Shown here piece after piece: positions 3,172 through 21,255 of a stretch of DNA of 64,000 bases (the first letter of the stretch is position 1; each line of letters opens with the position of its first letter). The translations under genes were made by a program, and so were the position numbers. The DNA is from Planctomycetota bacterium (lineage in GTDB: Bacteria > Planctomycetota > JAJSAM01 > JAJVHW01), in NCBI GenBank assembly GCA_024280885.1, contig JAJRPF010000008.1, forward strand, positions 11,707-75,706, in the 5' to 3' direction. The notes below the pieces were generated by a model. That model did no database searches, was not told where the DNA came from, and saw nothing but the letters and a program-made list of their open reading frames with translations.

Positions 3172-4884
3172 TCACCGGATGTATGCGCGGATCACCTTGC
3201 CCGTTCTGTCCAGCAGCTTGACGCGCCCGTTCTGTGCCACGGCAACGCGCCCTCCGGCGACGTTGACGACGTTGCGCCATACGTTTCTCGCGTCGGGGAG
3301 TTCGACACGCGCTCCCGTTTCGATCTGCAGCAGTCCGGAGTCGGTGCGCACCCACGGGCCAAACCCGTTCGGCATCGCGAACGCTTGCTCGTCTCTGGCG
3401 AGTCTCGCCGTCGCGCGCGTTCCCACGATGGCGCCCGTCTCGCTGTTGACCGTGCTGTACGAGGCGGAGCCCTTCGCGAACTCGTAGACATGTACGAGGC
3501 CGGCGAGTTCGTCGAGGCGCCCCGTCGCCGTCCCGGTGACGGGGATGCTCAGGACGTCGTCGCCGGATTGCAGGTCGCGCAAACGGAGAGAGTCGTCGTC
3601 CGTCTGCTGGAACGCATGGTGCGGGCGCACCGAGAGCTTCGTCCCTGCTGGCACCTCCATCGATCGCCCGGCCCACTGAACGGACGTGTGGCTGCTACCG
3701 TCCTTTTCGCGGCCTGACCATGACGAGCCCCACCACGCGTCGTTCTGGCCGCGCCAGCCTGCGCGGTGTTTCTCCATGACCTGGCTCTCGGCGCTGAGCT
3801 GATCCCAGGAGCGGCTCTTCACCGACAGTCCGTCGGTCGGCTCGACCCAGCGCATCACTGCACGCTTCACGTCGTTGGCGTTGGAACCCGGCCAGCGAAA
3901 GAGATCGCACTCCCAGACGCGGAACGTCCCTGCGGCGGTCCACGCGGGTTCGGCCGGGATCACGTACGTACCGTCTACGACGTGCACTGCGCCCGACTCG
4001 ACGTTTACGATCCACACATGTGCCCGGCGTGCTCCAAACCGCTTCACATGCAAGGCGAGGTAGCGTCCGTCTGGCGACGGGTCGATCCGGTAGATATTCA
4101 CGTCCTCATCGCCGGGCACGAAGCTGGTGTGAGCTTCGACGGTCGCGATTGCCGCGGCCCCCGTCGGGACGCCGATGCAGATCGGGATCAGCAGCGCGAG
4201 GGCCCACTTCCTGACGAGCGAACGACTGTGGATGGGTCCGCGCGTGAAAGCGACGAGCGAACCGGCCAGAAGCAGCGCGCTGATGGTCGCCGGGACGGCG
4301 ACGAGGATCGTGTCGCCCGCGTCGATCCCGAGTGCCCAGAAGTCGATGCTCCACATCGCGAACGCCGGAGCTCCGACGGTGGCGACGCCCGCGACCGTTG
4401 CGGCGAATCCGCGGGGGAGGAGCGTGGAGAAGAAGAGGGCCGCGAACGCGGGGACGAGCGCGATGGGAGTTCGGGCGATCGCCTCGCCGCTTGCGCCTTG
4501 CATTGCCGTGTTGGCGGCGCCGCTGGCGCGCAGAGCGTAGAGCGCTGTTGTGACGGTCAACGCGTACACACCGAATGCGAGCGTCGCGACGACGAGGTGT
4601 GTGACCTTCGCGGCCCAGATCCGACCGAGGCCCGTCGGGAGACTTGCGAGAGCGTCCATCCGGCCGGTGGAGACATCGCTTGCCACCAGGTCAGAAGCGA
4701 TGAGCAGCCCGCAGAGCGCGGCTGCCGCCGTCCCGAACCAGCGCGCGGTCGATGCGCCGTACGTGTAGTGCCCGAAGAACTCCTCGTAGGCGATCAGGGC
4801 GAGGGGGGCGATCACGGCGAGCACGACGATGAGCGCGCGCGTGTCGCGGGCTTCTCTGCGGAGGAGGGGCAGGAAGGTCCGCAT
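3172..4884 (-). CDS. ABC-2-type permease fused to a C-terminal extracytoplasmic PD40/TolB-like beta-propeller domain
   Basis: N-terminal ~250 aa is a multi-TM region. C-terminal ~320 aa contains IYRIDPSPDGRYLALHV. Paralogous to the next gene. Confidence 0.7.
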   Translation of the reverse strand: MRTFLPLLRREARDTRALIVVLAVIAPLALIAYEEFFGHYTYGASTARWFGTAAAALCGLLIASDLVASDVSTGRMDALASLPTGLGRIWAAKVTHLVVATLAFGVYALTVTTALYALRASGAANTAMQGASGEAIARTPIALVPAFAALFFSTLLPRGFAATVAGVATVGAPAFAMWSIDFWALGIDAGDTILVAVPATISALLLAGSLVAFTRGPIHSRSLVRKWALALLIPICIGVPTGAAAIATVEAHTSFVPGDEDVNIYRIDPSPDGRYLALHVKRFGARRAHVWIVNVESGAVHVVDGTYVIPAEPAWTAAGTFRVWECDLFRWPGSNANDVKRAVMRWVEPTDGLSVKSRSWDQLSAESQVMEKHRAGWRGQNDAWWGSSWSGREKDGSSHTSVQWAGRSMEVPAGTKLSVRPHHAFQQTDDDSLRLRDLQSGDDVLSIPVTGTATGRLDELAGLVHVYEFAKGSASYSTVNSETGAIVGTRATARLARDEQAFAMPNGFGPWVRTDSGLLQIETGARVELPDARNVWRNVVNVAGGRVAVAQNGRVKLLDRTGKVIRAYIR

Positions 4885-4885
4885 C

Positions 4886-6571
4886 TCAGTTCTCCTGCTT
4901 CGGGGCGTAGACGGTGCGGGGGTTGGTGCCGTCGAGGTTCTGGATCTCGATGCGACCGTCGATCGTCAGTTGAATGACGCGGCGATCGGGGAGAACGCGG
5001 GCGCCGAGGAATGGATTGCCGGTCCACGCCTGGACGCTGGCGTACGTCGCTTGTGTGGCGAGGTCCAGGATGACGCGTTCGCCATCGTCGTCGCGAAACA
5101 CGAAGCGATCGTCAGAGCCGCCGCCGGGGAACCACGGAATACCGTGTGATCCGTCATCGACGACAGAACCCGTCTGCACATCTACGATGGTCGATCCGGT
5201 TGGGGAGTACATTCTCACGTACGCGCCGGTGGGCGAGAACGTCGCGTTGATGAACCGTTCGCGAGCGCGTTCTGGTGCACGAATGATCCGCGACGTGCCG
5301 GCGACGAGATCGTGAAGATGCACGCCCGCGGTGTCGGTGTAGAGCGCGTAGCCGGGAAGGCGCGAAAACTGGGGACTTCGGCTCACCGGCAGTGCACATT
5401 CCACGCCGGTGGCGGAGAGCGTCACGATCATGTCTGCGCCTTCGATGCGCGTCGTCGCCCAGTCAACGAACGGATAGAGGCGACCGGAGTTGACCTGTTT
5501 CGCCGACCGCGTCTCAAGGACGACGCCGGTCTCCTGGTCATAGAGGCGGTACAGGCTGGCGGTGCTTGTGTCGCCCGGCGTCCAGGCCCGGTACGCGCCG
5601 TCGTCGGCCCACGGGTTGCTCTGGTCGGCGCTCAGGTTGAGCTCTCCGAGTTGGGCGAGACTTCCGTCCTCGAGGTCGAGGATCCAGGTGCGAAGACTGG
5701 CGAACTTGTGCGGCTTCGCCGCGAGGATCACGAGGCGTCGGCCGTCGGGGGATACGTGACCGAGGGCAAGCCGCAAGCCCGGATCGTGGGGTTCGACGTC
5801 GAGTCGCTGTGAGAGTACGGCGGCCGAGATCGCTCCGGCCGGGAGAAGGACGACGATGGGGATGATCGCCGCAATGGCGAGTCGGCGCCAGACGGACGAG
5901 GTGTGCTGCGGAGCACGTACGAAGGCGAGTAGAGAACCCGCGAGAAACACGGGCGGCAAGGCGAGGAGCGCCGTTGCGACGGCCTCGTCGTCGGGCACCA
6001 ACTCCGGCGAGATCCAGTGGAGCAGCGGGATGGTGCCGCCGATCGCCGTGCACGTGACGACAGCGGCGCCGACGACGGCGAAGCCGCGTTCGAGGACGGT
6101 GGACCAGAACACGACGGTCGCGACGGCGAAGAGCGTTGCGTAGACCGCCATCGGGGGGAGTCGCGACAGTTCCACGAGGAACTGCGTGTTGGCCTCGGCG
6201 GGCGCGAGTGTCGCGTAGATGGCGGCGCAGGATGTGACGGTCCAGACCGAGAACGCCGCGCCGATCAGTAGCAGGAACGTCAGCTTCGACGCCCAGAGCG
6301 AGGACCAACGCGTCGGGAGGGCGGCGAAGGCGCGGGCGCGCTTCGTCGCGATGTCGGCGGCGATGATGTCCGCGGAGATGACCGCCAGGAAGAGGCCGAT
6401 GCAGACGGGAACGTACGTGGCGGCGGCGATGTCGCCGCGCCAGTCGAGGTAGCCGTACTCGATCGCGAGCAGACCGCCGGGGACGAGCAGCGCGCACGCG
6501 ATCGTGAGCGCGCGGACGTCGCGCCACTCCTTGTGGAGCAGTGCGAGTTGGGTCCTCAGGAAGCGTTGCAC
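4886..6571 (-). CDS. ABC-2-type permease with C-terminal PD40-like domain (paralog of 3172-4884)
   Basis: Same architecture. LGHVSPDGRRLVILAAKP motif. Only a 1-nt gap to the downstream paralog. Confidence 0.7.
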   Translation of the reverse strand: MQRFLRTQLALLHKEWRDVRALTIACALLVPGGLLAIEYGYLDWRGDIAAATYVPVCIGLFLAVISADIIAADIATKRARAFAALPTRWSSLWASKLTFLLLIGAAFSVWTVTSCAAIYATLAPAEANTQFLVELSRLPPMAVYATLFAVATVVFWSTVLERGFAVVGAAVVTCTAIGGTIPLLHWISPELVPDDEAVATALLALPPVFLAGSLLAFVRAPQHTSSVWRRLAIAAIIPIVVLLPAGAISAAVLSQRLDVEPHDPGLRLALGHVSPDGRRLVILAAKPHKFASLRTWILDLEDGSLAQLGELNLSADQSNPWADDGAYRAWTPGDTSTASLYRLYDQETGVVLETRSAKQVNSGRLYPFVDWATTRIEGADMIVTLSATGVECALPVSRSPQFSRLPGYALYTDTAGVHLHDLVAGTSRIIRAPERARERFINATFSPTGAYVRMYSPTGSTIVDVQTGSVVDDGSHGIPWFPGGGSDDRFVFRDDDGERVILDLATQATYASVQAWTGNPFLGARVLPDRRVIQLTIDGRIEIQNLDGTNPRTVYAPKQEN

Positions 6572-7533
6572 GGCGTCACCTCCTGCCCGTTCTTCGGAGT
6601 TGTCTCGGTGGCGCGGGCGGCGGCGCGGAACACGTGTTCGAGGTCGCGAGTCAGCCGATTGATGGACGCCACCTTCGCGTCCTCGCGCAGCGCCTTCTCG
6701 TAGGCGGGGTGGAAGTCGATGTAGGTGAGGACGACATCGGCGCCATCGCGTTCCGTGGCGGGGTGCCCCGGTGCCGACCAGATGGCGTTCGCGTCGTGGA
6801 GCGTGACCGCCATGCGGACGGACGAGCGTTGCAACTCCTCGAGGTCAGAGTCGAGACGGATCACGCCCTGCTCCATCAGCGCGACGCGATCGGCGACGCG
6901 CTCGACGTCGGTGATCGAGTGTGTGACGACGACGACCGTGCGACCTTCTTCGCGAAGATGTCCGAGGATCGCGGTGAGCACCTCGTGTCGCACGATCGGA
7001 TCGAGTCCGCTGAACGGCTCGTCGAGGAGCAGGAGTTTCGGGCGGTGCGCGAGCGCTGAGATCAGCGAGTGCTTCGCGCGCTGCCCCTTCGAGAGCGTCG
7101 ACACGTTCGCACGCGGATCGAGGTCGAGTTGCGCGCAGAGCTGCGTCTCCTCGTCGCGACTCCACGTCGGATAGAACGGCTCGAGGAAGCGGAACCAATC
7201 CTCGACGCGCATCCACTTCGGGAGCTCGACGCCGTCCTGGACGTAGCCGACCTTCGCGCGGATCGCTGGACCCTTGCGGGCGGGGTCGAGTCCGAGCACG
7301 CGAATGTGCCCGGCCTTCGGGACGAGCCAGCCGGTGAGGAGGCGCATGAGCGTCGTCTTGCCCTCGCCGTTGCGGCCGAGCAGCGCAGTTACACTCCCCC
7401 GCGGAACGCAGAGATCGACGCCGTTCAAGACGTTGTTCTTGCCGAAGCGATGGTGGAGTGCGTCCACCTCGATCACATAGTCGTCGTCCATGTTCACGGT
7501 GTTCGCTGTGCGTACTGTGTGTGCGGTGTTCAT
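6556..7533 (-). CDS. ABC transporter ATP-binding protein
   Basis: Walker A GRNGEGKTT, signature LSKGQRAK, Walker B LLLLDEP. AGGAGG 8 nt upstream of the ATG. 16-nt overlap with the downstream permease. Confidence 0.85.
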   Translation of the reverse strand: MNTAHTVRTANTVNMDDDYVIEVDALHHRFGKNNVLNGVDLCVPRGSVTALLGRNGEGKTTLMRLLTGWLVPKAGHIRVLGLDPARKGPAIRAKVGYVQDGVELPKWMRVEDWFRFLEPFYPTWSRDEETQLCAQLDLDPRANVSTLSKGQRAKHSLISALAHRPKLLLLDEPFSGLDPIVRHEVLTAILGHLREEGRTVVVVTHSITDVERVADRVALMEQGVIRLDSDLEELQRSSVRMAVTLHDANAIWSAPGHPATERDGADVVLTYIDFHPAYEKALREDAKVASINRLTRDLEHVFRAAARATETTPKNGQEVTPCNAS

Positions 7534-7922
7534 TGAGTCACCTCCTGCGTGGCGCCTTGCAGCAAGCGGCTCACGAGTCGTTCGATTTCTTGGGGGGAGA
7601 GGCCAGCGGCGAGCGCCTCCTCGACGGCGCGAGCGAGTCGCTCACCGAGCAACTTGCGCGTGCCGATGCGGCAGAGCTTCGGGGCGTCCGGGGCGACGAA
7701 TACGCCCGAGCCACGCCGCGTCTCGACCGTGCCGTCGCGCTCGAGTTCGCGATACGCGCGGGCCACGGTGTTGGGGTTGACGAGCGCCTGAGCGGCGAGA
7801 CCCCGTACCGACGGCAGCTTGTCACCGGCGCCGAGGCGTCCGCCGGCAACGGCAAATCGCACCTGATCGGCGATCTGTTCGCTGGGCGGCGTAGGCGCCT
7901 TGGGATCAACCTCGATCCGCAT
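7530..7922 (-). CDS. GntR-family transcriptional regulator, short YtrA-like subfamily
   Basis: 130 aa. HTH LPSVRGLAAQALVNPNTVARAYRELERDG. ATGA overlap with the ABC ATPase gives the YtrA-type regulator-ABC operon layout. Confidence 0.85.
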   Translation of the reverse strand: MRIEVDPKAPTPPSEQIADQVRFAVAGGRLGAGDKLPSVRGLAAQALVNPNTVARAYRELERDGTVETRRGSGVFVAPDAPKLCRIGTRKLLGERLARAVEEALAAGLSPQEIERLVSRLLQGATQEVTQ

Positions 7923-8005: not shown

Positions 8006-8109
8006 AGACCGGGTCGGCCTTGGGGCCTTATAGCCTCAAAATGCCGGGTTCGGATCCACGGCGGCGTTGGAGAGTTGAGGCTATAAGGCCCCAAGGCCGA
8101 CCCGGTCTG
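8006..8109. repeat. inverted pair of the 34-bp element AGACCGGGTCGGCCTTGGGGCCTTATAGCCTCAA forming a ~104-bp hairpin (MITE/REP-like)
   Basis: Direct copy at 8006-8039, inverted copy at 8075-8109, ~35-nt spacer. The same 34-mer recurs at 29217-29250 and 38005-38038. Confidence 0.7.
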
Positions 8110-8122: not shown

Positions 8123-10990
8123 CTACTTGGCGTTGTGTTCTAGGAGCTGGGTGAAGGTGCCGCCGCCCTGGTGGGCGAGGCGCTGGAGGAACGTCTCGTT
8201 CACTCCGAGATTGCCGTAAACGACGACGTAGATGCGGGCGCGGGCGTAGCGGTTGACCTCGGTGAACCAGCGCAGGAATTGCTCCGGCTCCACGACGTCG
8301 CCGATCGTCGGGCTGCCGTCCGTCAGGAGATGCACCGTGTCGGCGCTGTCCGGCAGTGACGGCGACGTCCACGTGCGCTCGCCGATCTCCAGTGCGGCGC
8401 CGAGCGCGCCGTGGAAGTTCGTCTCGCCCCATGGCGATCGGCTCCGCGCGAACGACGCTCCACCGCGCTTGTTGCCGGCGCTCGCCGGAACGAGTGCGTT
8501 CTTCCACGTCGCGACGTCGCTCGCGAAGGCGACGACGTTGAACACGGCGCGCGGGTCGAGTTGCTCGATCGCGTGCCGCAGCTCGATGCGCGACATCTCG
8601 GAGATTGTCGGATTGCCCGGCCCATAACTCCCGAGCAGACGCTCCTTCGTTCCGGGTGACGGGCTGAAGTTACGGTTCGTGCTGCGGCTCGTGTCGATCA
8701 CGAAGACGATGCGTTGCGAGAAGATGCGCTCGCCATAGACCGTCGGCGTGTTGTCGGGCGCGTAGCGCCCCGGTTCCTCGGGCTTCGGCTTCGGGCCCGT
8801 GATCGCGAAACCGCCGCGCTCGTTCGCCGAGCGCTCTTCCAGACGCCACCAGCCCTTCCACTTCTCGACGTCGTTGCCCATGTCCTCGCCGGAGAGGCGC
8901 CGCAGCGTGGCGAAGATCTCCTCGCGGACGCGCCCGCCCTCCTTCTCTGCGCGCTCGAGTAGTGGCGGGATGCTCTCGGGCGCGCCGATCTCCGCCAGTG
9001 TCTGCGCCGCTGCGATCCGCACTTGCCAGCGGGCGTGGGAGAGGTTCTTCGCGATGAGCGGAAGACACGTCGAATTCACTTCCTCACCGAACGCAGCGAG
9101 TGCGTCCATCGCGGCGATGCGCGTCTTGGGGGATGTGTCTTGAGAGAGCGCGCGGATCCCCGACTGCGCGTTGAAGTCGCGGAGTGCGGCCGAAGCCAGT
9201 GCCGACTCCGCGCGCACCAACCAGTGCGCGTCCTTGACCAGTGGGCGGAGCGCGTCCTTCGCGTTCGTGAGTCGCAGGAGTCGCACCGCCCGCGCCGCGT
9301 AGGCCCGCGAGAGCGGTCGCGCGGCCGACAGTCCGTGTTCCCAAATCGCGCGCCTGGCCGCTGCGTCCTCGACCTTCAGCAGTACGTCCAGGCCGGTCTC
9401 GCGAACACGATCGCTGCGAACGATCCCCACGAGATCGAGCAGAGCGGCGATCTCCAGCGGATCGGTGATCCTCCCCAGCGCGCGGATCCCCGCTTCGAGG
9501 TCGGCGGGGTCCATCATCGCGTTGAGCTTCCTGGCCGACGGTGTCTCGACGTCGGCCGCCTCGCTCGCGTCCTTCCCGAGGAGACGCGCAACCCACGCTT
9601 CGTGGAATGCCTCCGGGCTCATACCCAGATGATCCTCGAATGCCTCGCGCACGTCCCGTTCCTTGCGCAGATCCGCGAGTAGGTCAACCCACGGTTCGCG
9701 CCAGTCGTCCGACTCAAACGCCACGTCGAAGTAGCTCCAGCATTGGCGGCGCTCCTCGAGATTGAGGTGTCCGAGCGAGCTCGCTGCAAGCAGTTTCGCA
9801 ATCGGCGCGAGGTCTCCGCTACGCGCCCGGTTTTTCAACTTCTTACGCCAGTCCTTGCCGCTCCCCGAGATCTTCTGCTGTTCGCCGGTGCAGTAGTAGA
9901 CGACGTCACGGTGCTTCTCGACGCGCTTGTTGAACCAGTGCGCGATGCCGACGAACGCCCAGCGCGGCATCGTGCGGTTCTCGCCATTGCGTCCGATCCA
10001 GCACGTGATCATGACGTGCGCCATCAAGTGTCGCATCGCTCCGTGCAGCGCGTAGTCGTCGCCCGCGAGCGACCGCGCGGCCGCGGCCGACTGCTTCATG
10101 CGCTGCAACGGAACGCAGAAGCCGTTCAGGCAGAAGCCCTCGGAGATCGCGGAGTCACCGCGCCCCTGATACGAGCTGTAGATCATGTGGTTGCGCGAGT
10201 TGCGAAAGTACGACGCCTGCAACTTGCGGCCATCGGTCTCGCTCTTCGGTAGGTAGATGCCCATCGGGCGCAACAACTTCACGCGTCCGTTCATGACCTT
10301 GCCGAACTCGGTGTACGCCTGCTCGGCGCGTTGCACCATCAGGTGTGCATACTCGTGCGTCGTCGCGACGCGCACCTTCCCGGACTCGGACATCAGCTTG
10401 ATCTTGGGGATGTCCGTGACGACGTAGAAATGCCGCGAGTACGCCACCACCACGCGCTTCTCGTCGAACCATTGCTTCTCGATCGCGAGTTGCTTCTCCA
10501 TCGAAGAGCGCGCGTCCTGGCGCATGGCGTCCTTCTCGAAAGGGTCACCGTGGTCGCCGTCGCACCGCGGACAACTCGCACGCCCGGGGAACGGACAGCA
10601 CGTCGTGTTCGCGAGACACGCGCTGCAGTTGATCTTCCACGAGAGCGCGTGACGCTTGAGAAAGCACGCCATCCGATTGGACGCCATGCACGCCGCGTTG
10701 AAGCCCTTCGGTATCTCCCGCCCGGCGACGCAGAGCGCGCCCGACGCGCATTTCTCGCAGGGTCGTGGATCGTCGGGCGCCGCAACGGGCGCGTTCAGGA
10801 AGTGGTAGCAAGCCTGACGGTAGACGCAATGACAGCGCGCCTCGTCGGCGCCCGCCTCGTCGTCCTGCGCCGCGGCGCGGCGCCCGAACGGACCGATCAC
10901 GCACGCCGCCACCAGCAATGCAATCGCGAGAGCGCGCATCCATGCTCGTCGCTCGGAGATCGTCTGCGACATCATCTGCGATCCGTCCAT
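8123..10990 (-). CDS. secreted multidomain protein: Cys-rich module + HExxH metallopeptidase-like domain (DUF1570-like) + HEAT/PBS repeats + C-terminal von Willebrand factor A domain
   Basis: Start placed at MDGSQMM (residue 187 of the track ORF): GGGAGGAAGG 6 nt upstream, and further upstream would overlap gene 11070-12029. Signal peptide MRALAIALLVAACV. A ~12-Cys module follows. HExxH is ATTHEYAHLMVQ. HEAT-like repeats follow. vWA MIDAS motifs VFVIDTSRS...TNFHGAL...LLTDGSPT. Confidence 0.75.
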   Translation of the reverse strand: MDGSQMMSQTISERRAWMRALAIALLVAACVIGPFGRRAAAQDDEAGADEARCHCVYRQACYHFLNAPVAAPDDPRPCEKCASGALCVAGREIPKGFNAACMASNRMACFLKRHALSWKINCSACLANTTCCPFPGRASCPRCDGDHGDPFEKDAMRQDARSSMEKQLAIEKQWFDEKRVVVAYSRHFYVVTDIPKIKLMSESGKVRVATTHEYAHLMVQRAEQAYTEFGKVMNGRVKLLRPMGIYLPKSETDGRKLQASYFRNSRNHMIYSSYQGRGDSAISEGFCLNGFCVPLQRMKQSAAAARSLAGDDYALHGAMRHLMAHVMITCWIGRNGENRTMPRWAFVGIAHWFNKRVEKHRDVVYYCTGEQQKISGSGKDWRKKLKNRARSGDLAPIAKLLAASSLGHLNLEERRQCWSYFDVAFESDDWREPWVDLLADLRKERDVREAFEDHLGMSPEAFHEAWVARLLGKDASEAADVETPSARKLNAMMDPADLEAGIRALGRITDPLEIAALLDLVGIVRSDRVRETGLDVLLKVEDAAARRAIWEHGLSAARPLSRAYAARAVRLLRLTNAKDALRPLVKDAHWLVRAESALASAALRDFNAQSGIRALSQDTSPKTRIAAMDALAAFGEEVNSTCLPLIAKNLSHARWQVRIAAAQTLAEIGAPESIPPLLERAEKEGGRVREEIFATLRRLSGEDMGNDVEKWKGWWRLEERSANERGGFAITGPKPKPEEPGRYAPDNTPTVYGERIFSQRIVFVIDTSRSTNRNFSPSPGTKERLLGSYGPGNPTISEMSRIELRHAIEQLDPRAVFNVVAFASDVATWKNALVPASAGNKRGGASFARSRSPWGETNFHGALGAALEIGERTWTSPSLPDSADTVHLLTDGSPTIGDVVEPEQFLRWFTEVNRYARARIYVVVYGNLGVNETFLQRLAHQGGGTFTQLLEHNAK

Positions 10991-11069
10991 CGAGGACCTT
11001 CCTCCCGAGCCGAGGGATCCAACCACCCGGGCTCCTGTCTCGCGCTTCCACAGGGTACCGGAAGCTGCG

Positions 11070-12029
11070 CTACTTGGGCGGCAGGCGTTCGATCGTGCAG
11101 CGGAGTTCCGCCGTCTCGCGCCACGCCGGGTCCGCCGCGTCCCGGACGTCGATCTCCAGCGTCCACTCGAGCGTGTTCGGCAGCCCGTCATCCCACGCAA
11201 GACTCGCATTGCCCGCGAACGATGCGGCTTCGAGGCGCAATCGCGACAGACGAGTGGCACGTGTGAGCACCTCGTCCTCGGACGCCGCGCGCTGCGCACG
11301 TCCGGCGGCTCCCCAAGCGCGAAGCAGCACGGGCTTGCCGGAGACGTCAAACGTGATCGACGCACCGTCGCGCGCGAGCACTGCCGTCTGCGTCTCGACC
11401 TTGACGCCTGGCCCCCATAATGCGGCGACGAACTCCACGTCCGACTTCCACGGACCGTCTCCGTGGGCCAACGGAACGAAGAAGAGCGCCGGATCGGAGA
11501 GGAGGTGTTCGAGGAGTGCCGAGCCGACGTCTTCGGCGCGGTTGTCATCCACGCGCTCTGCGATCCGCGGATCGATCGTCGGGTCCGCCACGAACCCGTG
11601 CGTATCGACGATGCAACTCGCCGCCGTACCGGTACTCACTGCCCAGAACGCCGCGAACTCCACCGCGATGTCGCTCTCGGGGTCCTCGAGTACCTCGGTC
11701 ACCGCGGCGTATCCGCGATCCGTCGTGTCGAGCGCTGGAGCGCCGTCGAGGCCGCCCACCCACACACGCGCCCGTCCGTATTCGATACCGACGTGCCACG
11801 CACCATCGGCCACCTCGCGCAAACAGCGGAGTCTGACGTTCTGCGCCACCCTGATCTCTGGCTGCTCCTCGCCGTCCACGAGGACCCCCGTCAGCTCGAG
11901 TGTCTGCACGTACTCGATGGCATCGCCCGCCGAGAGCGCAACGTGCGCGTCGCGGTCGCCACCACTGCATGCGGACACAACGAGGCCGCCGAGCACGAGA
12001 AGGGAGAGAGGGACCACACGGCGAGACAT
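11070..12029 (-). CDS. lipoprotein of unknown function
   Basis: N-terminus MSRRVVPLSLLVLGGLVVSACSGG fits a lipobox. 12-nt gap to the methyltransferase gene. Confidence 0.6.
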   Translation of the reverse strand: MSRRVVPLSLLVLGGLVVSACSGGDRDAHVALSAGDAIEYVQTLELTGVLVDGEEQPEIRVAQNVRLRCLREVADGAWHVGIEYGRARVWVGGLDGAPALDTTDRGYAAVTEVLEDPESDIAVEFAAFWAVSTGTAASCIVDTHGFVADPTIDPRIAERVDDNRAEDVGSALLEHLLSDPALFFVPLAHGDGPWKSDVEFVAALWGPGVKVETQTAVLARDGASITFDVSGKPVLLRAWGAAGRAQRAASEDEVLTRATRLSRLRLEAASFAGNASLAWDDGLPNTLEWTLEIDVRDAADPAWRETAELRCTIERLPPK

Positions 12030-12041
12030 CGTCAGCGCAGA

Positions 12042-12857
12042 CTACGCGCTCGCGGCGCGAAGGACCCAGACCTGCTCTCGCCCGTATGTTGGCGGCGCGC
12101 CCTTGAAGTCCCCGTACTCCGCCTCGACAACGAGTCCGCACAGTTCGACGAGATGCCGCATCTCCTGTCGATACGTCCACCGGAGCGCGAGGCGGTCCGT
12201 CTCTCTGCGGATCTCCGTGCCGTCCGCGTCTCGCTCTATGAAGATGAACCGCTCTTCGATCACCTGACGCAATGGGTTCGTCGACATGCGCTTGTTCCAG
12301 ATCTCGACCGTCGTGCCGCTCGGCAGCGCGTACGTGCCACACGACTCGTTCACGGAATCACGCGTCGGAGCGAGGAGATCGAGCCGTGGGTCGAAGAGAT
12401 CGATCACGAGTCGGCCGTCGGGTGCCAGATGCTCGCGCAGCGCTGTGAGAGAGGCGCGTTGCGCGACCGTCGTGAGCAGCACCTGCCACGTTCGAAACGT
12501 GACGAGAATGAGCGGGAAGAGACGACCGAGGTCCGGCTGCGCGACGTCGCCGCTGCAGAACGTCACGCGTTCGGCGGCTTGTGCGTCGGGCGCCTTTACT
12601 GCTGCGGCCTTGCGCATGGCAGCGGAGAGATCCACGGCAACGACTTCGAAGCCCGCCTCCGCGAGCGGCCACGTCACGCGCCCGGTTCCGCATCCGAACT
12701 CGGCGATCGGCCCGCCGAGGCGACGAGCGAGATCGACGTAGAAGGCGACATCGCCTTCCACGGGTGTCTGGGGAATCAGGGCTGCATGTGCCGCGTCGTA
12801 GCTCCGAACCGAGAGCCCCTCCTCCGCGCAGAGACGCCGCGTCACTTGATCAACCAC
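12042..12857 (-). CDS. class I SAM-dependent methyltransferase
   Basis: Motif I EFGCGTGRVTWPLAEAGFEVVAVDLS. GTG start 1 nt after the stop of the upstream 959-aa gene. Confidence 0.8.
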   Translation of the reverse strand: MVDQVTRRLCAEEGLSVRSYDAAHAALIPQTPVEGDVAFYVDLARRLGGPIAEFGCGTGRVTWPLAEAGFEVVAVDLSAAMRKAAAVKAPDAQAAERVTFCSGDVAQPDLGRLFPLILVTFRTWQVLLTTVAQRASLTALREHLAPDGRLVIDLFDPRLDLLAPTRDSVNESCGTYALPSGTTVEIWNKRMSTNPLRQVIEERFIFIERDADGTEIRRETDRLALRWTYRQEMRHLVELCGLVVEAEYGDFKGAPPTYGREQVWVLRAASA

Positions 12858-12858
12858 A

Positions 12859-15738
12859 TCACTTGACCAACGACAGCAAGAACACCTTGAACTTCTCGTG
12901 CATGTCCTCGCCGCTCTCGAAGCCGAACCGCGTCGACGGGTCCTTCACTGAGCTGCTTCCGTAGTAGTTGCGCATGTACTTGATGAGCGCCTGGCGCCCC
13001 TCGTCACCGCAGCGATTCATGAGGAAGAAGACGAGGCTGCCCGACTGCTCGTAGAAGAGCGCGCGGTAGTCGAAGCGGCGGTTGCCGACCGTGTTGCGAA
13101 GGTCGACGTCGGCGATGTGCTTCTCGGGGATCTTCGAGAATTGGACCTGTGTCATCGCGACGAGTTCCGCCGTGTTGAGCAACTTGTCGATGCGCGCGAC
13201 CTGCGAGCAGCCATCGAGCGACGTGACCGTCGGATCATCGAGTCTGCCCTGGCGGCGCCCCATCTCCATCGACTGGTCTTCCATGAAGCGGGCGAATCCC
13301 TCGACGACGAAGTAACCGGGAATCCCCGCGCTGCCGCCCCGCGAACGCCCGCCGAGCCAGCGCATCGAGAGCCAGTGGTGCGTCAGCTCGTGCGCGAGCG
13401 TCTTCAGCAGATTGAGTGGTACTCTGTCGCTGCCGTCACGCGCCTTCGATACGTAGAAGCGACTGACGTTCTCGCCCGGGGAGTAGTACCCCGCGGACCA
13501 CGGCATGGCCTGACCACCGTCGGGGGTTCGCTCGGCGAGATACTCCTCGCGATTCTTGTGGATGCGCACGTCGAGCGGCTGTTTGCGATTGGCCTTGCCC
13601 TTCCCGAGCAAGCTTTCGAGTCCGCGCACCGTGCCCTCGCCGATGCGCAGGCACTCACCCACGACGTTGATGTCGGCGCTGCGCGAGAAGAGCATGACGT
13701 TGCGCGTGCGGAGACCGAGCGTGTCCTCCGTCCACGGCTTATTGCGTGCTTGCTTCCAGAGCCCGTTGGACTTCGAGATGAAGCGCCCGCCCGACGGCAC
13801 GATCGCCTTCGCCCACGTGAACCACACGCGCCCGGGGTTGGGCGCGTCAGCGAAGGGGAAGCCCTCTGGGATGAGCTTCTTCGCGCGCGCGTCGATCTCC
13901 GCCGCATCCACACCCTCGCGTTCGACGTACTCGAGCAACGCGGTCGCGGCGCCTTCGTACTCGCGGCTCTCACACCATTCGATCGCGCTCCAGATGGCCG
14001 CGACGCCCTTCGCTCGTGCCTTGTCTTCGATCGGCCCGAGGCGCTTCTTCTTCATGTCCGAGTTCGCGTTCTCGGTCTTGCTGGCGATGCTCGATTGATA
14101 GGTCTCGACGAGTGCGTCGCCCGCGTTGTAGCGCCGCATGTCGGCGAGAACGCGGCGGGCATCTTTCAGTAGTCTCTCCTTGCGGTACGCTTCGAAGGCG
14201 GGCTGCAGACCCTGCACGAAGACGCCGTCCAGGATGTTCTTCCAGGCTGCGAGCACGGCCGGTTCTTCGCCACGCAACGTGACCTCGCCGCCCGCCTCGC
14301 CGAGCGCGATATCGTCGAGTGCGAACTCCTCCGCTTCACCGGACTTCGGCGTGACCTTCACCGCGTCGCCGACGCGTTCGAACGTGCCGACGATCTTGCG
14401 GCCCGAGCGGAGGAAGACGCCGTCGCCATCGGTTGGTGGCGGTGCGGCGACTTCGGCGCCCGCGACGGCGGCACTCTCGGGATCGCTGCTGACCACTGCG
14501 TCGGGTTCCGCGAGGCAGATCAACTCATTCGTCTCGGTCCCGAGCATGACGAAGGCGTCCGCGACCGGTGTCACCGTCGTGATCTTCGGCAGATCCGGGA
14601 GGACCCACATCGTGCGGCCGGTGGCGGCGTCCATCGCCCAGTTGCCGAAGCAGACCGTGTTGCCCCAGGCGACGGCCGGACCCGGACGAGCGCCCTGCGG
14701 CAGCGATCCGCGCTCCGTGAGGGCGCGTCCCCCGCGTTCCGCAGTCACCATGTTCAGCGTCGTGTCCCTGGCGAAGCCATAGGCCTTGCCGCCACTCTGC
14801 GCCGGAGGCGTGATGATGTCGGATGCCTTGCGCTTCTTCACCTCGTCGGGGTGGAGCGCCATCGTTCCTGAGAAACCCGAGCCGTTGCCGCGCCCGGTCA
14901 GGAGCCACGAGCCCTCTTTCTTGCCCTGGAGCCAACCCATGACGAGCGCGCGTTGCGCGTCTCCGCCCGGCTCGCTTCCAACGCGGTTGAGTTCGTGGGT
15001 CGTCAGCGATCCAAACGACGGCTTCTTCGTCCCGAGTCCCTTGAGCGCCGTCACATGCATGTAGAGCTTGGCGTCATCGATGGACTGATACGTGCCAGCG
15101 ATCTGCACGCTGCGCTTGCCGCGCCGCACACCCAGCATCGCGTAGGGAATCTGCCCACTCACCTCGTCGTCTGGCCCGAGCCAGCGCGTCTTCGCGTATT
15201 CGCGCCCCTTCAAGGCGTCGAACATCTTCAGTTCCGCACCGTCGCGCACGATGACAAGGCCGTCGATGACGCTCTGGCCGCCGATGAACGCGCCCTTCTT
15301 CCGCCACGGGTTGCCAAGCTTTCCGCCCTTGAGCGGGAACCCGCGCAGGCTCTTCTCCTGACAGACGATGACGCGTCCCTGCCAAGCTGCAAGCGTGGCC
15401 CACAGGCCCTTTCCGAGGCCCCGCTCGTGTACCTTCGTGCCGCGGCGCGCGTGATATGCCTGCAAGATGAGCTTGTCGCGATCGGCGACGACCACGTACA
15501 CGATCCCGCCCCAGGTGACGGGTTCGCAGACGAGTGGTCCCGGCAGCTGCGCCTTCCACGCGATCGTGGGTTCGGCCGCGACCGGTGCGAAGGCGCTCAT
15601 GCCGGTGCGCGCCTCGTCGCCACGCGCTTGATTCCATTCGCGCGGCGCGCTGTCCTGCGCGTGCGCGTCCATCGGGGCGCTCCCCACGCCGAGTGCCGCC
15701 ACCAAGGCCAGGGTCACGATCACCGCTCGTCGCATCAT
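12859..15738 (-). CDS. secreted PQQ-like beta-propeller + HExxH metallopeptidase-like (DUF1570-like) protein
   Basis: Signal peptide MMRRAVIVTLALVAALGVGSAPMDAHA. PQQ/BamB-like repeats WGGIVYVVVADRDKLILQAYHARRG. C-terminal LKTLAHELTHHWLS. GGAGGG upstream of the ATG. Confidence 0.8.
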   Translation of the reverse strand: MMRRAVIVTLALVAALGVGSAPMDAHAQDSAPREWNQARGDEARTGMSAFAPVAAEPTIAWKAQLPGPLVCEPVTWGGIVYVVVADRDKLILQAYHARRGTKVHERGLGKGLWATLAAWQGRVIVCQEKSLRGFPLKGGKLGNPWRKKGAFIGGQSVIDGLVIVRDGAELKMFDALKGREYAKTRWLGPDDEVSGQIPYAMLGVRRGKRSVQIAGTYQSIDDAKLYMHVTALKGLGTKKPSFGSLTTHELNRVGSEPGGDAQRALVMGWLQGKKEGSWLLTGRGNGSGFSGTMALHPDEVKKRKASDIITPPAQSGGKAYGFARDTTLNMVTAERGGRALTERGSLPQGARPGPAVAWGNTVCFGNWAMDAATGRTMWVLPDLPKITTVTPVADAFVMLGTETNELICLAEPDAVVSSDPESAAVAGAEVAAPPPTDGDGVFLRSGRKIVGTFERVGDAVKVTPKSGEAEEFALDDIALGEAGGEVTLRGEEPAVLAAWKNILDGVFVQGLQPAFEAYRKERLLKDARRVLADMRRYNAGDALVETYQSSIASKTENANSDMKKKRLGPIEDKARAKGVAAIWSAIEWCESREYEGAATALLEYVEREGVDAAEIDARAKKLIPEGFPFADAPNPGRVWFTWAKAIVPSGGRFISKSNGLWKQARNKPWTEDTLGLRTRNVMLFSRSADINVVGECLRIGEGTVRGLESLLGKGKANRKQPLDVRIHKNREEYLAERTPDGGQAMPWSAGYYSPGENVSRFYVSKARDGSDRVPLNLLKTLAHELTHHWLSMRWLGGRSRGGSAGIPGYFVVEGFARFMEDQSMEMGRRQGRLDDPTVTSLDGCSQVARIDKLLNTAELVAMTQVQFSKIPEKHIADVDLRNTVGNRRFDYRALFYEQSGSLVFFLMNRCGDEGRQALIKYMRNYYGSSSVKDPSTRFGFESGEDMHEKFKVFLLSLVK

Positions 15739-15782: not shown

Positions 15783-16484
15783 TCAATTGGACCCTCCCCC
15801 GGAGAGGAAATAGCCCACCATGAGTTGAAGGACGATCGAGGCCTCGCCGACAGACCCTAGAACCTCGTGGAGTGAGTCCTCGATTGGCTCTCCCACTTCC
15901 GGCGCCGGAAGCCCGAACACCATGATCGCCAGGAGCGCAGCGTAGGGACTGACCAAGAGCAGCATTCCGGCGCCGCGTCCGAAGAGGACCCGGTTCCGCG
16001 GGCGCGCCTGCCACGTCACGAACGCGACGAGGCTGAGCACGACCACCGCGGGCGTGTACCAGCGGGCGAAGAGCAGCAGCCACGGTCCGCCAGGCCACTC
16101 CGCCGGAGGCATGTCCAGGCCGCGCGTGACGAGGAAGGAGATCACCGCGGCAGCGAGCGGCAGCACCAGGAAGAAGAGGCCCGCTGCGATCGGGCCGATC
16201 GCCCGCCTCACACGTTCCTCGCCCTGCTGCATGCAACCCCAACCGAGGAGGCTCGCCGTCGCCAGCGCGACCACGACATAGAACGTCAATCGGTCGGGAT
16301 CGAGCATCTCCGGCCACGCGTCGTCGGGCGTCAGAGCCAGCGCGCCGGTTCCGACGAGCGCCGCCATTCCGACCACCCCGATCCACCACGAGACAGGAAT
16401 CAAGATCCGTCGCACGAGATCGGGGGCCTCGAACGCGACGCGTGCCGCATCCTCGATCCCCGTCCGTCGCTTCCGTCTGCCCAT
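15783..16484 (-). CDS. integral membrane protein (about 6 TM), unknown function
   Basis: Hydrophobic segments throughout. Fills the gap between the tricorn gene and the downstream operon. Confidence 0.5.
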   Translation of the reverse strand: MGRRKRRTGIEDAARVAFEAPDLVRRILIPVSWWIGVVGMAALVGTGALALTPDDAWPEMLDPDRLTFYVVVALATASLLGWGCMQQGEERVRRAIGPIAAGLFFLVLPLAAAVISFLVTRGLDMPPAEWPGGPWLLLFARWYTPAVVVLSLVAFVTWQARPRNRVLFGRGAGMLLLVSPYAALLAIMVFGLPAPEVGEPIEDSLHEVLGSVGEASIVLQLMVGYFLSGGGSN

Positions 16485-16499: not shown

Positions 16500-19400
16500 T
16501 CAGGGCTTCGGGTAGCGCAGATCGGGGCGGGGGCCGAGGTCGGGCGGCACCGTCGGCGCGGCGTCGAGGCGGTGCATGACCTCCTTGATGGCGCGGTCGA
16601 GTTGAGGGTCGCGATCGTGCCACGCGTCGGAGGGCGTGCGATCCACCACGATGTCGGGCTCGACACCGTGGTTCTCGACGCCCCAGCCGGGGCCGTGGAA
16701 CCAGAATGCGTACTCCGGCTGCGTCGTGAAACCGCCGTCCACAAGATCCTTCGCGCGATCGATGCCCACCACGCCGCCCCATGTCCGCATGCCGATCAGC
16801 GGCCCGAGTCCGGTGACTTTCACCGCCTGACTGAAGATGTCGCCGTCGGAGCCCGCGTTCTCGTTCGTGAGGACGACCACGGGACCCATCGGCGCGTGAT
16901 ATGGATACGTGCGCGGGGCGTGATTCCAGCGCGCTGCCGTCCACCCGACGACCTGCCGTAGGAGCTTCGCCAGCAGGATGCTCGAGATGTTGCCACCGCC
17001 GTTGAAGCGGTTGTCGATCACGAACCCACTCTTCTGCGTCACCTGCCAGAGGAAGTGCCGGTGGAACTCGATCGCGCCCCCGAGGCTCATGTCGGGAATG
17101 TGAACGTAGCCGATCCGGCCGTCTGTCGCCGCATCGACTTTCAGTCGGTTCGTCTCGACCCAATCCCGGTAGCGCAGCGATTGTTCGGAGCCAGTCGGCG
17201 TGACGCAGACCTCGCGCGTGTTGGTGCCCTCGGCGTCGTCGGCGATCGTCAACGCCACGCTGCGGCCCGCCTTCTGGAGGAGGAACTCGCCGGGATGGAC
17301 GCAGCGCCCGGGTCCATCGCCGCCCACGGGATTGCCGTCCACCGCGAGCAGGTAGTCACCCACGCTCACGTTCTTGCCGGGCGCCGCGAGTGACGAGTGC
17401 TGCCCTTCGGCCCACACGTCGCCGGTGTAGATCCGCGCGATTCGCAGCGCGTTCGTGTCGTCATCGGCGCTCAGGTCGCAGCCAAGTTGCCCGGGTGCGT
17501 AGCGGCGCGCCTTCGAGAGGTCGCCGCCCATCGCGTAGGCGTGCGACGTGCCGAGTTCGCCCTGCATTTCCCACAGCAGGTCCGCGAGTTCCTCGCGCGT
17601 CCGCACGCGCTCGACCAGCGGTGCGTAGCGGCGCAGGCAGGCGTCCCAATCGACCTGCACCAGCTCCTTGTCGTAGAAGTGATCGCGCTGGAGCGCCCAT
17701 GCCTCCTCCAGGATCTGGCGATACTCCGCACGCGGGTCTGTCGCGAGTGTGATGCGTGAGAGATCCATCCAGCCGGTTGTGCGCGATACGCGCTCCTTGT
17801 CCTCGGTCGGCGGGAGTTCCGCGGGCTTGACCGCGGCGCCGAGCGCGCGGTAGCGCGTGCCGATGCGGTAGAGCCACGTCGAGCCGTCGGCCGACTCGCA
17901 CCAACCGCTCACTGACGGGAGCGCCGTGTCCACTTTGCGTTCGATCAGGTCGTATGTCTCGACGCTGTAGGGAGCGGCCTCCGGTCCGTCGCCTTCCCAC
18001 TCGATCCGCCAACCCCGCAACGGCAGCTTCAGGACCGCGACGGACGCGGCGGAGCAGCCGATCTTGTCGTAGCGTCCGGCGGGGAAGGGGAAAGGCACAG
18101 CGCGCTCGGCAATCCCGTCGAAGTCGATCTCGATCGGCTCCGTCACGCGCTCGGGCGCCTTCTCCGGCGGCACGACATCCGCCGCGAAGGGCGGCTCCTC
18201 ATCCTTGCGCAACATCAGCGCATACGCGCGGGTCGGCGCGACGAATGCGAAGTCGTGTTCGAGCGCGCTGCCGTAGGGGTCGAGATGGCGTGACGAGAGG
18301 AGCGCGAGGAAGCGTCCGGCGGGATCCCACGCGGGCGAGGAATCGACAAACTCGTCGCGGCTGACCCGCGCGATGGAGCCATCGGCGACGCTCCACACGA
18401 AGATGCGCGTGGACCACCAATCGGACGCCCGCGAGTACGCGAGCCACGTGGAGCACGGCGACCAGGCGAGATCGCGCACCCATTTGTTGCCCTTGTCATC
18501 GATGAGCGCGAAGTCGGCGCTCTCGCCGTCGTCGGCGAGCGTTGCGATATGGAGCCCGCGACCCTGATCCACGATGGCGATGCGTTTCCCGTCCGGGCTC
18601 GGCTCGATGGTGCGGATCCGCCGCCCGACGCCGCCGAGGATCGTGGCCTGCTCGAGATCGGTTCCGATGCCGGCGACCGGGATGGTGAGCAAGCGATCCT
18701 CGCCGTCGATCTGCCCAATGGCCACCATGCGGCCGTCGTCACCGACGAAGCGCGCTTCGCGGAGGCGGATGCCGTGCGGCGCCGCGACCACCCGAGCCGC
18801 GCCGTGCCAGTTCGGGAGATGTACGACGCGGCCACGCGTGGTGAAGAGCGTCTCCTTGCCGTCCGCCGACAGCGCCATCGACTGGATGCTCTTCGGCACG
18901 CCGACGAACTTGCGCTGCGTCGCGAGAGAGTGCCCGCGCACGGTGACCGGGATCTCGCGCGGCGTGGGCTCGTCAGTCGTCGTGTCCAGCAGGAAGAGGC
19001 GCGCGCCCGCCGTGAACACGATGCGCGTTCCGTCAGCTTGCGGCCAGCGGACGAAGAACTCCTGCTGCGACGTGACGCGACGGCGATTGCCGCCGTCGGC
19101 GTCGGCGACCCAGAGATCGCCCATGCCGTCCTGATCGGAGAGGAACCAGAGCTGATCCCCGATCCACATCGGACAGCCATCGGTCCGCGGGCCGCCCGGC
19201 AGCAGCTCGAACTCGCCGGTGGACCGACTGCCGATCCAGATACGTCCGGCGCGCCCGCCCTGATAGCGCTTCCACCACGCGGGATCGGATCCGTGTCGAT
19301 TGACGGCGACGCGCTCGCCGTCGGCGTGATACGCGATCGTGGACGCGCGCCCGAGTGGCATGCCCGTGACCGGTCCGCCTCCGGCCGGCACGCTCGCCAG

Positions 19401-20419: not shown

Positions 20420-20434
20420 CGGCGAGGCGGGACT

Positions 20435-21193: not shown

Positions 21194-21255
21194 GGGAGAT
21201 CCTCCGGCCCGCCACTCTACATCGCTCGCCACCCTACATCACTCGTCAGTCCGGG

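Follow-up and report, generated by a model that had tools for sequence, protein, structure and literature searches.

The locus analysed here lies in a window of 64,000 nucleotides, which is the whole stretch of DNA under study, and is explained, rather probably as a whole, by a variable chromosomal stretch that carries a set of predicted exported proteins, one of them a probably active metallopeptidase (P1) and another a putative pseudo-peptidase (P4), together with a methyltransferase gene that is a passenger. Comparison with related loci indicates that this passenger is very recent and was inserted in the lineage of this strain only. Observed directly were the genes themselves, the domains and folds assigned to them, how well their residues are conserved, and which genes relatives have or lack; the peptidase activity of P1 and the inactivity of the canonical site of P4 we infer.

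The main value of the analysis is negative, yet useful: what looked like an odd operon proves to be a strain-level insertion, so that adjacency in this single genome misled. In addition, a small uncharacterised family of exported proteins, that of P4, is defined, which has so far been named only in Planctomycetota; its members have a zincin fold devoid of the canonical catalytic residues and display another invariant cluster of His and Glu, the domain being fused to HEAT repeats and to a von Willebrand factor A (vWA) domain.

Gene content and flanks of the locus

P1, the methyltransferase, a lipoprotein and P4 are encoded by four consecutive ORFs on the minus strand, as are all the features described below; an ORF check found the four genes of the first-pass annotation where it had placed them. 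The conserved upstream flank of the locus is a homologue of the Tricorn-type proteases (1104 aa, 16500–19814), containing the Pfam domains Tricorn_C1, PDZ_Tricorn and Peptidase_S41, whose orthologues occupy the same position in two related loci (L005 and L010); the other flank is a GntR/ABC-transporter module. The region between the two would be a variable stretch in a probably planctomycete chromosome; its conserved core, as far as sequence comparison goes, is shared by close relatives only and comprises the membrane protein g233, P1, the lipoprotein and P4, which would all be envelope or secreted proteins. The relatives compared, in order of identity, are L012 (P4 96% identical), L008 (about 80%), L005 and L006 (about 60–65%), and L009 and L010 (about 54–64%).

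The g233 protein (233 aa, 15783–16484) has about five predicted membrane-spanning segments, hydrophobic segments having been judged by eye in the translation, and a Pfam search gave no match; its orthologues, with 46–74% identity, are found directly upstream of P1 in L005, L006, L008 and L010. The lipoprotein gene (319 aa, 11070–12029) follows the methyltransferase gene after a 12-nt gap and codes for a product that was rightly designated as such: a lipobox, LVVSAC, is recognised by eye at residues 16–21, and its Cys is kept in four of the five orthologues (L012, L005, L006 and L009), being lost in L008. Identity with these orthologues is 88% in L012, 54% in L008 and 31–34% in L005, L006 and L009, while the gene is absent in L010; the protein belongs to no Pfam or NCBIfam family and, from its sequence, is a fast-evolving one. 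P1, the lipoprotein and P4 would all be exported, as predicted by their N-terminal sequences.

Scans of the region for promoters and terminators yielded site numbers not exceeding chance expectation; thus, a terminator-like hairpin (8006–8020), found by a consensus scan about 100 nt 3′ of the P4 stop codon, is weak evidence, since such sites are no commoner in the region than by chance. PADLOC, which contains models of anti-phage defence, returned generic and partial matches and none specific to a system (mad2, in its SAM domain, for the methyltransferase, with 44.8 bits, and HEAT-ARM_XIII for P4, with 21.6 bits), and membership of the locus in a defence system was rejected on this ground.

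The order P1, optional lipoprotein, P4 is kept in five loci (L005, L006, L008, L010 and L012), over a range of P4 identity that extends from 96% to about 62%. This speaks against P1 and P4 being functionally unrelated, their arrangement reflecting an inherited gene order in a hotspot of gene gain and loss that stretches from the tricorn protease to the GntR/ABC module. Such an origin is, however, a serious possibility, if one that falls somewhat short of an even chance: P4 stands alone in all the four loci where its identity is at most 50% (L001, L002, L004 and L007), P1 and P4 are on different contigs of GCA_021776825.1, the lipoprotein gene, a CarboxypepD_reg gene and others come and go between the same flanks, and a P1 paralogue within the window has no adjoining P4. 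Co-transcription of the genes is presumed here, as would be any cooperation between P1 and P4.

P1, P4 and their zincin domains

P1 (959 aa, 12859–15738) has a signal peptide (N-terminus MMRRAVIVTLALVAALGVGSAPMDAHA/QD), then a region that weakly resembles a PQQ/BamB propeller, a helical middle part and, at the C-terminus, a gluzincin domain; its family counts eight database clusters only. The first-pass annotation had described it as a PQQ propeller joined to an HExxH motif, and of these the motif stands, whereas the propeller stays below threshold (PQQ_2, 22.6 bits vs a cut-off of 27.6 in Pfam; BamB chains match the propeller region weakly, with E about 0.03). The catalytic motifs (13273–13392) are HELTHH (residues 783–788, nt 13375–13392) and VEGFARFMEDQ (residues 812–822, nt 13273–13305), and H783, E784, H787 and E813 are invariant in all nine aligned sequences. 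In the model of residues 485–959 (pLDDT 87), HELTHH is located on helix 291–310 of the model, which is the active-site helix, and E813 on the next one, helix 325–339. A Foldseek search of the PDB with this model placed the collagenases ColG, ColT and ColH, together with ERAP1, at the top (E 2e-4 to 1e-3, probability 1.0). The C-terminal domain therefore displays the features of the gluzincins of clan MA, namely HExxH on the active-site helix, a Glu in the third-ligand position and a zincin fold. Residues 601–959 match no Pfam family even at E up to 10, Peptidase_MA_2 and DUF1570 included, and the isolated N-terminal domain of P4, searched in the same way, gave nothing either. As its HExxH and its Glu ligand are intact, P1 is probably an active zinc metallopeptidase; this exported enzyme would consist of propeller-like, helical and gluzincin parts.

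P4 (955 aa, 8123–10990) comes after the lipoprotein gene, with a gap of 79 nt, and is preceded by GGGAGGAAGG. Its signal peptide is followed by a Cys-rich module and a zincin-like domain, and then by HEAT repeats and a vWA domain, an architecture conserved over the full length in 43 clusters of a 90%-identity database and also in the 57 cluster representatives of at least 800 aa that make up the census of the family. A Tat signal (SERRAWM) was considered and rejected, the RR pair not being conserved in homologues. The Cys-rich module (residues 53–143, 10562–10834) includes 14 Cys, in columns that are invariant or nearly invariant, and the stand-alone relatives of P4 have a CxxC-rich N-terminus, which in one case weakly matches Pfam DnaJ_CXXCXGXG. 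The HEAT/PBS-lyase-type repeats (residues about 526–704, 8879–9415) score above the Pfam cut-offs with HEAT_2 (63 bits), HEAT (31.7) and HEAT_PBS (22.2), and the vWA domain (8144–8710) reaches 35.7 bits with VWA_3, vs a cut-off of 27. Its MIDAS is complete, with D766-x-S-x-S770 (DTSRS, residues 766–770), T857 and D891 invariant or nearly so in the family, so that a vWA MIDAS at the end of a 955-aa protein, preceded by HEAT/PBS repeats, had been correctly noticed. The Cys-rich HExxH-HEAT-vWA architecture originally proposed holds as well, except that its HExxH, which reads HEYAH, is most probably not at the canonical active-site position. A search of the literature on DUF1570 and on the planctomycete combination of HEAT, vWA and metallopeptidase domains found nothing relevant.

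The N-terminal domain of P4 was modelled over residues 44–490 (pLDDT 81, pTM 0.85) and, compared to the PDB by Foldseek, resembles the peptidase domains of ColH and ColG, aureolysin (M4) and the M1 aminopeptidases (IRAP), with a best E of 4e-4 and TM of 0.39–0.45, which identifies a zincin fold. Two motifs were considered in this domain. The first, HEYAH...RAE (residues 212–223, 10319–10357), lies on a helix preceded by four strands, taken here for the backing helix (helix 168–190 of the model, ahead of a strand); H212, E213, H216, R221 and E223 are each conserved in 54–56 of the 57 full-length representatives. The invariance of HEYAH...RAE reveals strong selection on this His/Glu cluster, which could still be catalytic.

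The second motif corresponds to the canonical zincin site (9935–10030) and is degenerate: HLMAH (residues 321–325) replaces HExxH, reading H321-L-M-A-H325, and in WAFVGIAHW (residues 344–352) the third-ligand position is occupied by V347 instead of Glu. Among the 57 full-length representatives, the position of the catalytic Glu is an E in three, and that of the third ligand is an E in 27 and a V in 16; in the stand-alone relatives the catalytic-Glu position is mostly Asn or His. Which helix is the backing one and which carries the active site was assigned from the order of secondary-structure elements and from Pfam alignments in relatives. In the remote stand-alone ones, Peptidase_MA_2 (11 of 20) and DUF1570 (5 of 20) match at the second motif, and in the relative P0225 both matches start at, or just before, the homologous HNTAH...DEGFAH; the Pfam zincin models do not align to the HEYAH motif in relatives. 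From alignments and model together, HEYAH most probably sits on the backing helix, off the canonical active site. P4, whose canonical site has neither the catalytic Glu nor the Glu ligand, is most likely a metal-dependent binding or scaffold protein, that is a pseudo-peptidase rather than a conventional protease, in which the Cys-rich module and the zincin-fold domain are fused to a HEAT solenoid and a vWA/MIDAS domain.

Alternatively, P4 might be an active metalloprotease, with HEYAH (212–216) as the catalytic motif and E223 or H321 as the third ligand, as the conservation of the first motif, the near invariance of H321 and the zincin fold of the domain would allow. HEYTH is a motif of the M9 collagenases, which are the top fold matches, and HEYxH resembles it. 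This alternative is unlikely, however, because in the stand-alone relatives the Pfam alignments of Peptidase_MA_2 and DUF1570 fall on the second motif and not on the first, whose Glu is variable there (E in 16 of 54, the others having Q, R, K or A); moreover, no acidic residue or His is conserved 18–35 residues downstream of HEYAH, and the order of the elements in P4 (strands, HEYAH helix, strand, further elements, HxxxH helix, W.xEG.AHW helix) equals that of the backing, active-site and Glu helices of P1. As a speculation, to which a similarly low probability is given, P4 and its stand-alone relatives may form a branch of the zincins that gave up the canonical catalytic Glu throughout the family and established a new His-Glu-x-x-His...Arg-x-Glu centre on the backing helix, either an active site that has moved there or an additional metal site, in an exported protein that would capture its target through HEAT and vWA/MIDAS, possibly together with P1. 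Should the His/Glu cluster of P4 be functional, it would be an example, of modest interest, of how an active site migrates or a pseudoenzyme evolves within a very common protease fold.

The description of P1 and P4 as two HExxH proteins is true of their motifs, HELTHH and HEYAH, each of which is invariant in the alignment of its own family, and both domains have zincin folds; however, no mutual sequence homology was detected. Profile–profile comparison of the P4 N-terminal domain with P1 (whole and core sub-alignments, local and global) aligned only the trivial HExxH, and paralogy of the two proteins at the sequence level is thus unsupported.

The methyltransferase gene and its insertion

The methyltransferase gene (12042–12857; 271 aa from a GTG codon) is separated from P1 by a single nucleotide; in the NCBI annotation the gene, P0052, begins with another GTG, at 12845, which makes 267 aa and a 13-nt gap. 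The product has no signal peptide. Its original assignment to the class I SAM methyltransferases was borne out by five Pfam models above cut-off (Methyltransf_25, with 45.9 bits, and Methyltransf_12, 23, 11 and 31) and by a GxGxG SAM motif, FGCGTGR, at residues 54–60. CorZ (PDB 9SOT) is the nearest homologue of solved structure (139.6 bits, E 1.2e-39, residues 34–269), and CypM and MtfA are also among the solved relatives. The best NCBIfam match is the daptide methyltransferase NF041820, which is reached with 87 bits at profile positions 25–152 of 243, vs a curated cut-off of 175; membership in the daptide or RiPP methyltransferases was accordingly rejected. The family has more than 1,600 matches, the best non-self one being 52% identical, and is spread over many phyla at 41–52% identity; these are widespread enzymes of the cytoplasm, and free amines are the groups that their relatives of solved structure methylate. 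In 80 loci of the family, from Planctomycetota, Chloroflexota, Gemmatimonadota, Eisenbacteria and others, the gene never adjoins homologues of P1, P4, the lipoprotein or g233, and no conserved neighbour was found, the most frequent ones, purine-biosynthesis genes, occurring in 9 of the 80.

The gene is contained in a segment of about 0.87 kb (11994–12858) that was inserted or replaced in this strain specifically; it also provides the new 5′ end of the lipoprotein gene and carries no other gene than the methyltransferase. The DNA of L012 aligns to positions 13419–12859 (95.5%) and 11993–8005 (92.8%) of the window, two blocks that in L012 are separated by some 70 bp only, and there the P1 stop codon overlaps the lipoprotein start, with no methyltransferase in between. 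The octamer TCAAGTGA is present twice at the left junction of the segment; neither target-site duplications nor mobile-element genes were found at the junctions. The insertion, between P1 and the lipoprotein gene, would have replaced these 70 bp or so and given the lipoprotein a new start codon. Overall GC content of the methyltransferase gene (0.659) is the same as in the neighbours, and GC3 is 0.78, vs 0.85 for P1 and P4 and 0.80 for the lipoprotein; the indication of a foreign origin from composition is weak. The presence of a cytoplasmic enzyme amid secreted proteins, which had been pointed out as unusual, is explained by the recent insertion and not by function.

The first-pass annotation had read the four genes as a coupled operon, and a true functional operon would imply that the two HExxH proteins have a product or a substrate on which the methyltransferase acts; the N-terminus of a peptide newly freed by proteolysis, for instance, could be methylated, as in RiPP maturation. 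The gaps are tight (1–13 nt and 12 nt), CorZ acts on a RiPP whose leader has been removed by a protease, methylating the N-terminal amine that is then free (PMC12951456), and the daptide methyltransferase, CypM and MtfA point in the same direction. The synteny check failed, however: the methyltransferase is missing in all the seven related loci, including L012, L008, L005, L006, L009 and L010, one of which is 93–95% identical in DNA. Since the gene is absent from relatives and its broad family is found in unrelated contexts, a functional four-gene operon does not hold; the shortfall of the daptide score, the lack of a signal peptide in an enzyme whose neighbours are predicted to be exported, and an inserted segment that holds the methyltransferase alone also count against it. 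The operon reading is thus largely refuted by the synteny data and appears very improbable. The methyltransferase, taken as a passenger, is probably co-transcribed with its neighbours here, the gaps around it being short, and it may have a newly acquired local role.

The least probable explanation, an ancestral methyltransferase deleted in the relatives or a chimera of the assembly, agrees with the plain junctions and the matching GC content, but the former needs clean deletions to have occurred separately in at least five lineages, with the P1–lipoprotein junction restored every time. The nearest relative of the methyltransferase is only 52% identical, vs 80–96% for those of the flanking genes, and a chimera is unlikely to keep the reading frames at both junctions and to equip the lipoprotein with a whole new signal peptide and its ATG.

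Comparison with known systems

CorZ/BytZ (PDB 9SOT/9SOV; PMC12951456) belongs to the RiPP pathway of the biarylitide myxarylin, in which it methylates the N-terminal amine. The methyltransferase of the window is similar to it in its class I Rossmann fold and GxGxG motif, but is closer (about 50%) to the large, context-free family of many phyla. Of a biarylitide cluster, neither a P450 nor a precursor gene of about 5 aa was found in the inserted segment, which is flanked by P1 and the lipoprotein, and the neighbour families that recur in the 80 methyltransferase loci do not include such genes.

With Peptidase_MA_2 (PF13485) and DUF1570 (PF07607), of clan MA, P1 shares the zincin fold and the succession of HExxH, about 30 residues and xEGxAxxxE, and the N-terminal domain of P4 shares the order of secondary-structure elements, the remote stand-alone relatives matching these Pfam models, although neither the P1 nor the P4 domain itself does. 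P4 differs from them in having HLMAH...V at the canonical motif, with HExxH...RxE kept on the preceding helix. The M9 collagenases (ColG, ColH and ColT) and the M1 aminopeptidases are, among solved structures, what both models match best (E 2e-4 to 4e-4 and probability 1.0 in Foldseek, with moderate TM of 0.38–0.48 and 9–15% identity); unlike the collagenases, P1 and P4 have no collagen-binding or PKD domain, and P4 is devoid of the catalytic residues.

P4 is not adjoined by a MoxR- or BatA-type partner ATPase. Its vWA domain is akin to that of the inter-alpha-trypsin inhibitor heavy chain (ITIH; profile E 8e-20), the MIDAS being complete in P4, and its HEAT repeats to the alphaRep and PBS-lyase solenoids (profile E down to 1e-49 in the PDB). 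What sets P4 apart from both is the fusion of these domains to a Cys-rich module and a degenerate zincin in a bacterial protein that is predicted to be exported.

Gene layout and probable insertion of the methyltransferase gene

The window has a G+C content of about 67%. In agreement with the first-pass annotation, its minus strand carries four ORFs between 15738 and 8123, whose G+C content varies by codon position as expected. The first codes for P1, a putatively exported protein of 959 aa (15738-12859, minus strand; N-terminus MMRRAVIVTLALVAALGVGSAPMDAHA|QD), and is followed by a methyltransferase gene (12857-12042, minus), whose GTG start is located one base past the P1 stop codon; P0052, the database version of this enzyme, starts at the next GTG (12845) and has 267 aa. 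After a 12-nt gap comes the gene of a 319-aa lipoprotein (12029-11070, minus; lipobox LVVSAC) and then, 79 nt further on and preceded by a GGGAGGAAGG box, that of P4 (10990-8123, minus), a 955-aa protein with a signal-peptide-like N-terminus ending AAA|QDDE and a stretch with 14 Cys at residues 53-143. Pfam and NCBIfam back the class I SAM methyltransferase, the HEAT_2, HEAT and HEAT_PBS repeats and the VWA_3 domain; the MIDAS residues, the Cys-rich stretch and both HExxH strings were all found, and the initial description of the stretch was essentially accurate. The name “PQQ-propeller-HExxH” used there for P1 holds for the HExxH; for the propeller, the Pfam PQQ_2 match is sub-threshold (22.6 vs 27.6 bits) and PDB profile matches to BamB are marginal.

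The first-pass annotation had also proposed that the methyltransferase is embedded in a four-gene operon; the gene is, however, absent at L012, L008 (about 80% identity), L005 and L006 (about 60-65%), and L009 and L010 (about 54-64%). L012 (ERZ27262698) is the closest relative, with a P4 96% identical and DNA 92.8-95.5% identical to that of the window. In L012, about 70 bp stand in place of the segment of about 0.87 kb that carries the methyltransferase in the window, and the GTG with which its lipoprotein gene begins overlaps the stop codon of P1. An insertion in the lineage of the window is far more parsimonious than deletion, which would need five or more clean events. With the insertion, the lipoprotein gene exchanged its 5′-end and acquired a new ATG together with a new n-region of the signal peptide. 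The left junction (12842-12864, minus) carries two copies of the octamer TCAAGTGA, 6 nt apart, one at the P1 stop codon and the other at the alternative start codon (GTG) of the methyltransferase; L012 has a single copy. The doubling could be a trace of microhomology left by the event. Misassembly at the insertion is an unlikely explanation of the extra segment: reading frames are intact at both junctions and the lipoprotein has a complete new signal peptide.

The methyltransferase family

The enzyme has more than 1,600 relatives in the database, the best non-self match being 52% identical. In the neighborhoods of 80 family loci, from Planctomycetota, Chloroflexota, Gemmatimonadota, Eisenbacteria, Elusimicrobiota, Saccharimonadales and Proteobacteria, no homologue of P1, P4, the lipoprotein or g233 (a 233-aa protein with about five predicted membrane-spanning segments, coded directly upstream of P1) was found, and no neighbor family was common to more than nine; the most recurrent were purine-biosynthesis genes (at most 9 of 80 loci). 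Since synteny is not conserved and the family is widespread and free of a fixed context, the methyltransferase is not tied to this cluster and the operon idea is not supported. On these comparisons the gene is a passenger with no conserved link to its neighbors, probably co-transcribed with them.

CorZ (9SOT/9SOV; E 1.2e-39) comes closest among the solved homologues; its substrate is the RiPP myxarylin, which it methylates at the free N-terminal amine (PMC12951456). CcbJ, MtfA and CypM come next, and given these relatives the window enzyme is plausibly an amine N-methyltransferase. It arrived without any other biosynthetic gene. An identity as daptide methyltransferase was discarded, the NCBIfam cut-off not being reached, and so was a mad2 defense assignment, the PADLOC match being partial (44.8 bits), confined to the SAM-binding region and judged a generic fold similarity.

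Conserved core and flanking genes

Full-length P4 homologues form 43 clusters, the few named ones being Planctomycetota MAGs, and those of P1 only 8. Genomic context was retrieved for twelve homologues. The order g233, P1, lipoprotein, P4 is retained in L005, L006, L008 and L012; in L010 P4 directly follows P1 without the lipoprotein, and in GCA_021776825.1 P1 and the lipoprotein (L009) are on a separate contig from P4 (L007). P4 homologues at 50% identity or less have unrelated neighbors (L001, L002, L004, L007). The lipoprotein evolves far faster than its neighbors, with 33% identity in relatives whose P1 and P4 reach about 60-65%; the L008 orthologue has no lipobox cysteine. In L008 the P1 orthologue is also frameshifted near the C-terminus (3529-3756; 869 aa, followed in a different frame by the final 75 residues), and the short metagenome contig of L012 ends (4508-4752) in an inverted P4 3′-end of about 84% identical DNA, most likely an assembly artefact.

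Two conserved flanks enclose the core: one has the gene of a tricorn-type protease, the other those of a GntR regulator and an ABC ATPase together with permease-like genes. Upstream in the window (16500-23539, minus) are the tricorn-type protease homologue (1104 aa) and chalcone-isomerase-like, TPR and DUF4136 lipoprotein-like genes; the tricorn and chalcone-isomerase-like genes recur near the cluster in relatives. Downstream (3172-7922, minus), GntR, the ATPase and the first permease-like gene are conserved in L005, L006, L009 and L010, and the second permease-like copy recurs only in L009; the two paralogues (561 and 597 aa, about 31% mutual identity) have no Pfam matches. Gene content between the flanks varies: a CarboxypepD_reg gene is found in L005, L009 and L010, in L005 and L010 as an additional gene between P4 and GntR that the window does not have.

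The zincin-like domains of P1 and P4

The HExxH regions of P1 and P4 match no Pfam model and have no profile-profile similarity to each other. AlphaFold models of P1 residues 485-959 (pLDDT 87) and P4 residues 44-490 (pLDDT 81, pTM 0.85) retrieve with Foldseek the same solved folds, M9 collagenase peptidase domains (ColG, ColH, ColT), M1 aminopeptidases and thermolysin-type M4 (E about 2e-4 to 4e-4, probability 1.0); both are therefore predicted to be clan-MA gluzincin folds. In P1, the invariance of the canonical residues H783, E784 and H787 of the active-site helix and E813 of the next helix supports an active metallopeptidase. P1 is probably a zinc metallopeptidase that is exported, propeller-like in its N-terminal part and helical in the middle. 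A P1 paralogue (25406-28294, minus; 962 aa, 32% identity over the full length) also carries a signal peptide and keeps the motifs HELTHH...VEGLARFIEDQ intact. It is similar to P0051 and to L011, the locus of P0051, and no P4, lipoprotein or methyltransferase gene is next to it.

A P4-domain profile searched against 1.84 billion representatives gave 495 matches, some of them stand-alone secreted proteins about 370-420 aa long; among the aligned relatives, 11/20 match Peptidase_MA_2 (Pfam) and 5/20 DUF1570. In the database protein P0225, the Pfam models align from HNTAH(253)...DEGFAH(274) on and not to the earlier HDTAH(164), and this second motif aligns with P4 H321-L-M-A-H325 and W344-A-F-V347-G. 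The HExxH string first noted in P4, HEYAH, is thus present but most probably does not occupy the canonical active-site position. Since both models share the same order of elements (strands, long helix, strand, further elements, HxxxH helix, W..EG.AHW helix), HEYAH most probably lies on the backing helix. A census of 57 full-length P4-like representatives and 54 stand-alone relatives revealed that at the canonical site the catalytic Glu is retained in 3/57 of the former and mostly replaced by Asn (23/54) or His (9/54) in the latter, the second His is kept in 38/57 and 46/54, and the third-ligand position is Glu in 27/57 and 28/54, with Val in 16 full-length proteins including the window P4. H212, E213, H216, R221 and E223 of the backing helix are conserved in 54-56 of the 57, the Glu of the motif being variable in stand-alone relatives (E in 16/54). 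These counts indicate that the canonical protease site of P4 is degenerate and that a separate His/Glu cluster is strongly constrained. The profile matches also include P0202 and P0276; P0276 (905 aa), a remote relative only about 20% identical to P4, has the same zincin-like/HEAT/vWA architecture, so the fusion is older than the close P4 family.

P4 is most likely an exported binding or scaffold protein, in which the vWA domain, with its complete MIDAS, would bind a ligand in a metal-dependent manner and the HEAT solenoid would offer a surface for protein binding; for the Cys-rich module and the zincin-like domain, a role in binding is more probable than one in cleavage. Cooperation of P1 with P4, suggested only by their adjacency in one clade, has roughly even chances. 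Each domain can be assigned to a known superfamily (clan-MA zincins, HEAT repeats, vWA and class I methyltransferases); the P4-type zincin-like subfamily, which lacks the catalytic Glu, carries an invariant HExxH...RxE one helix earlier and is fused to HEAT and vWA domains, is not described in the searched domain libraries (Pfam) or literature.
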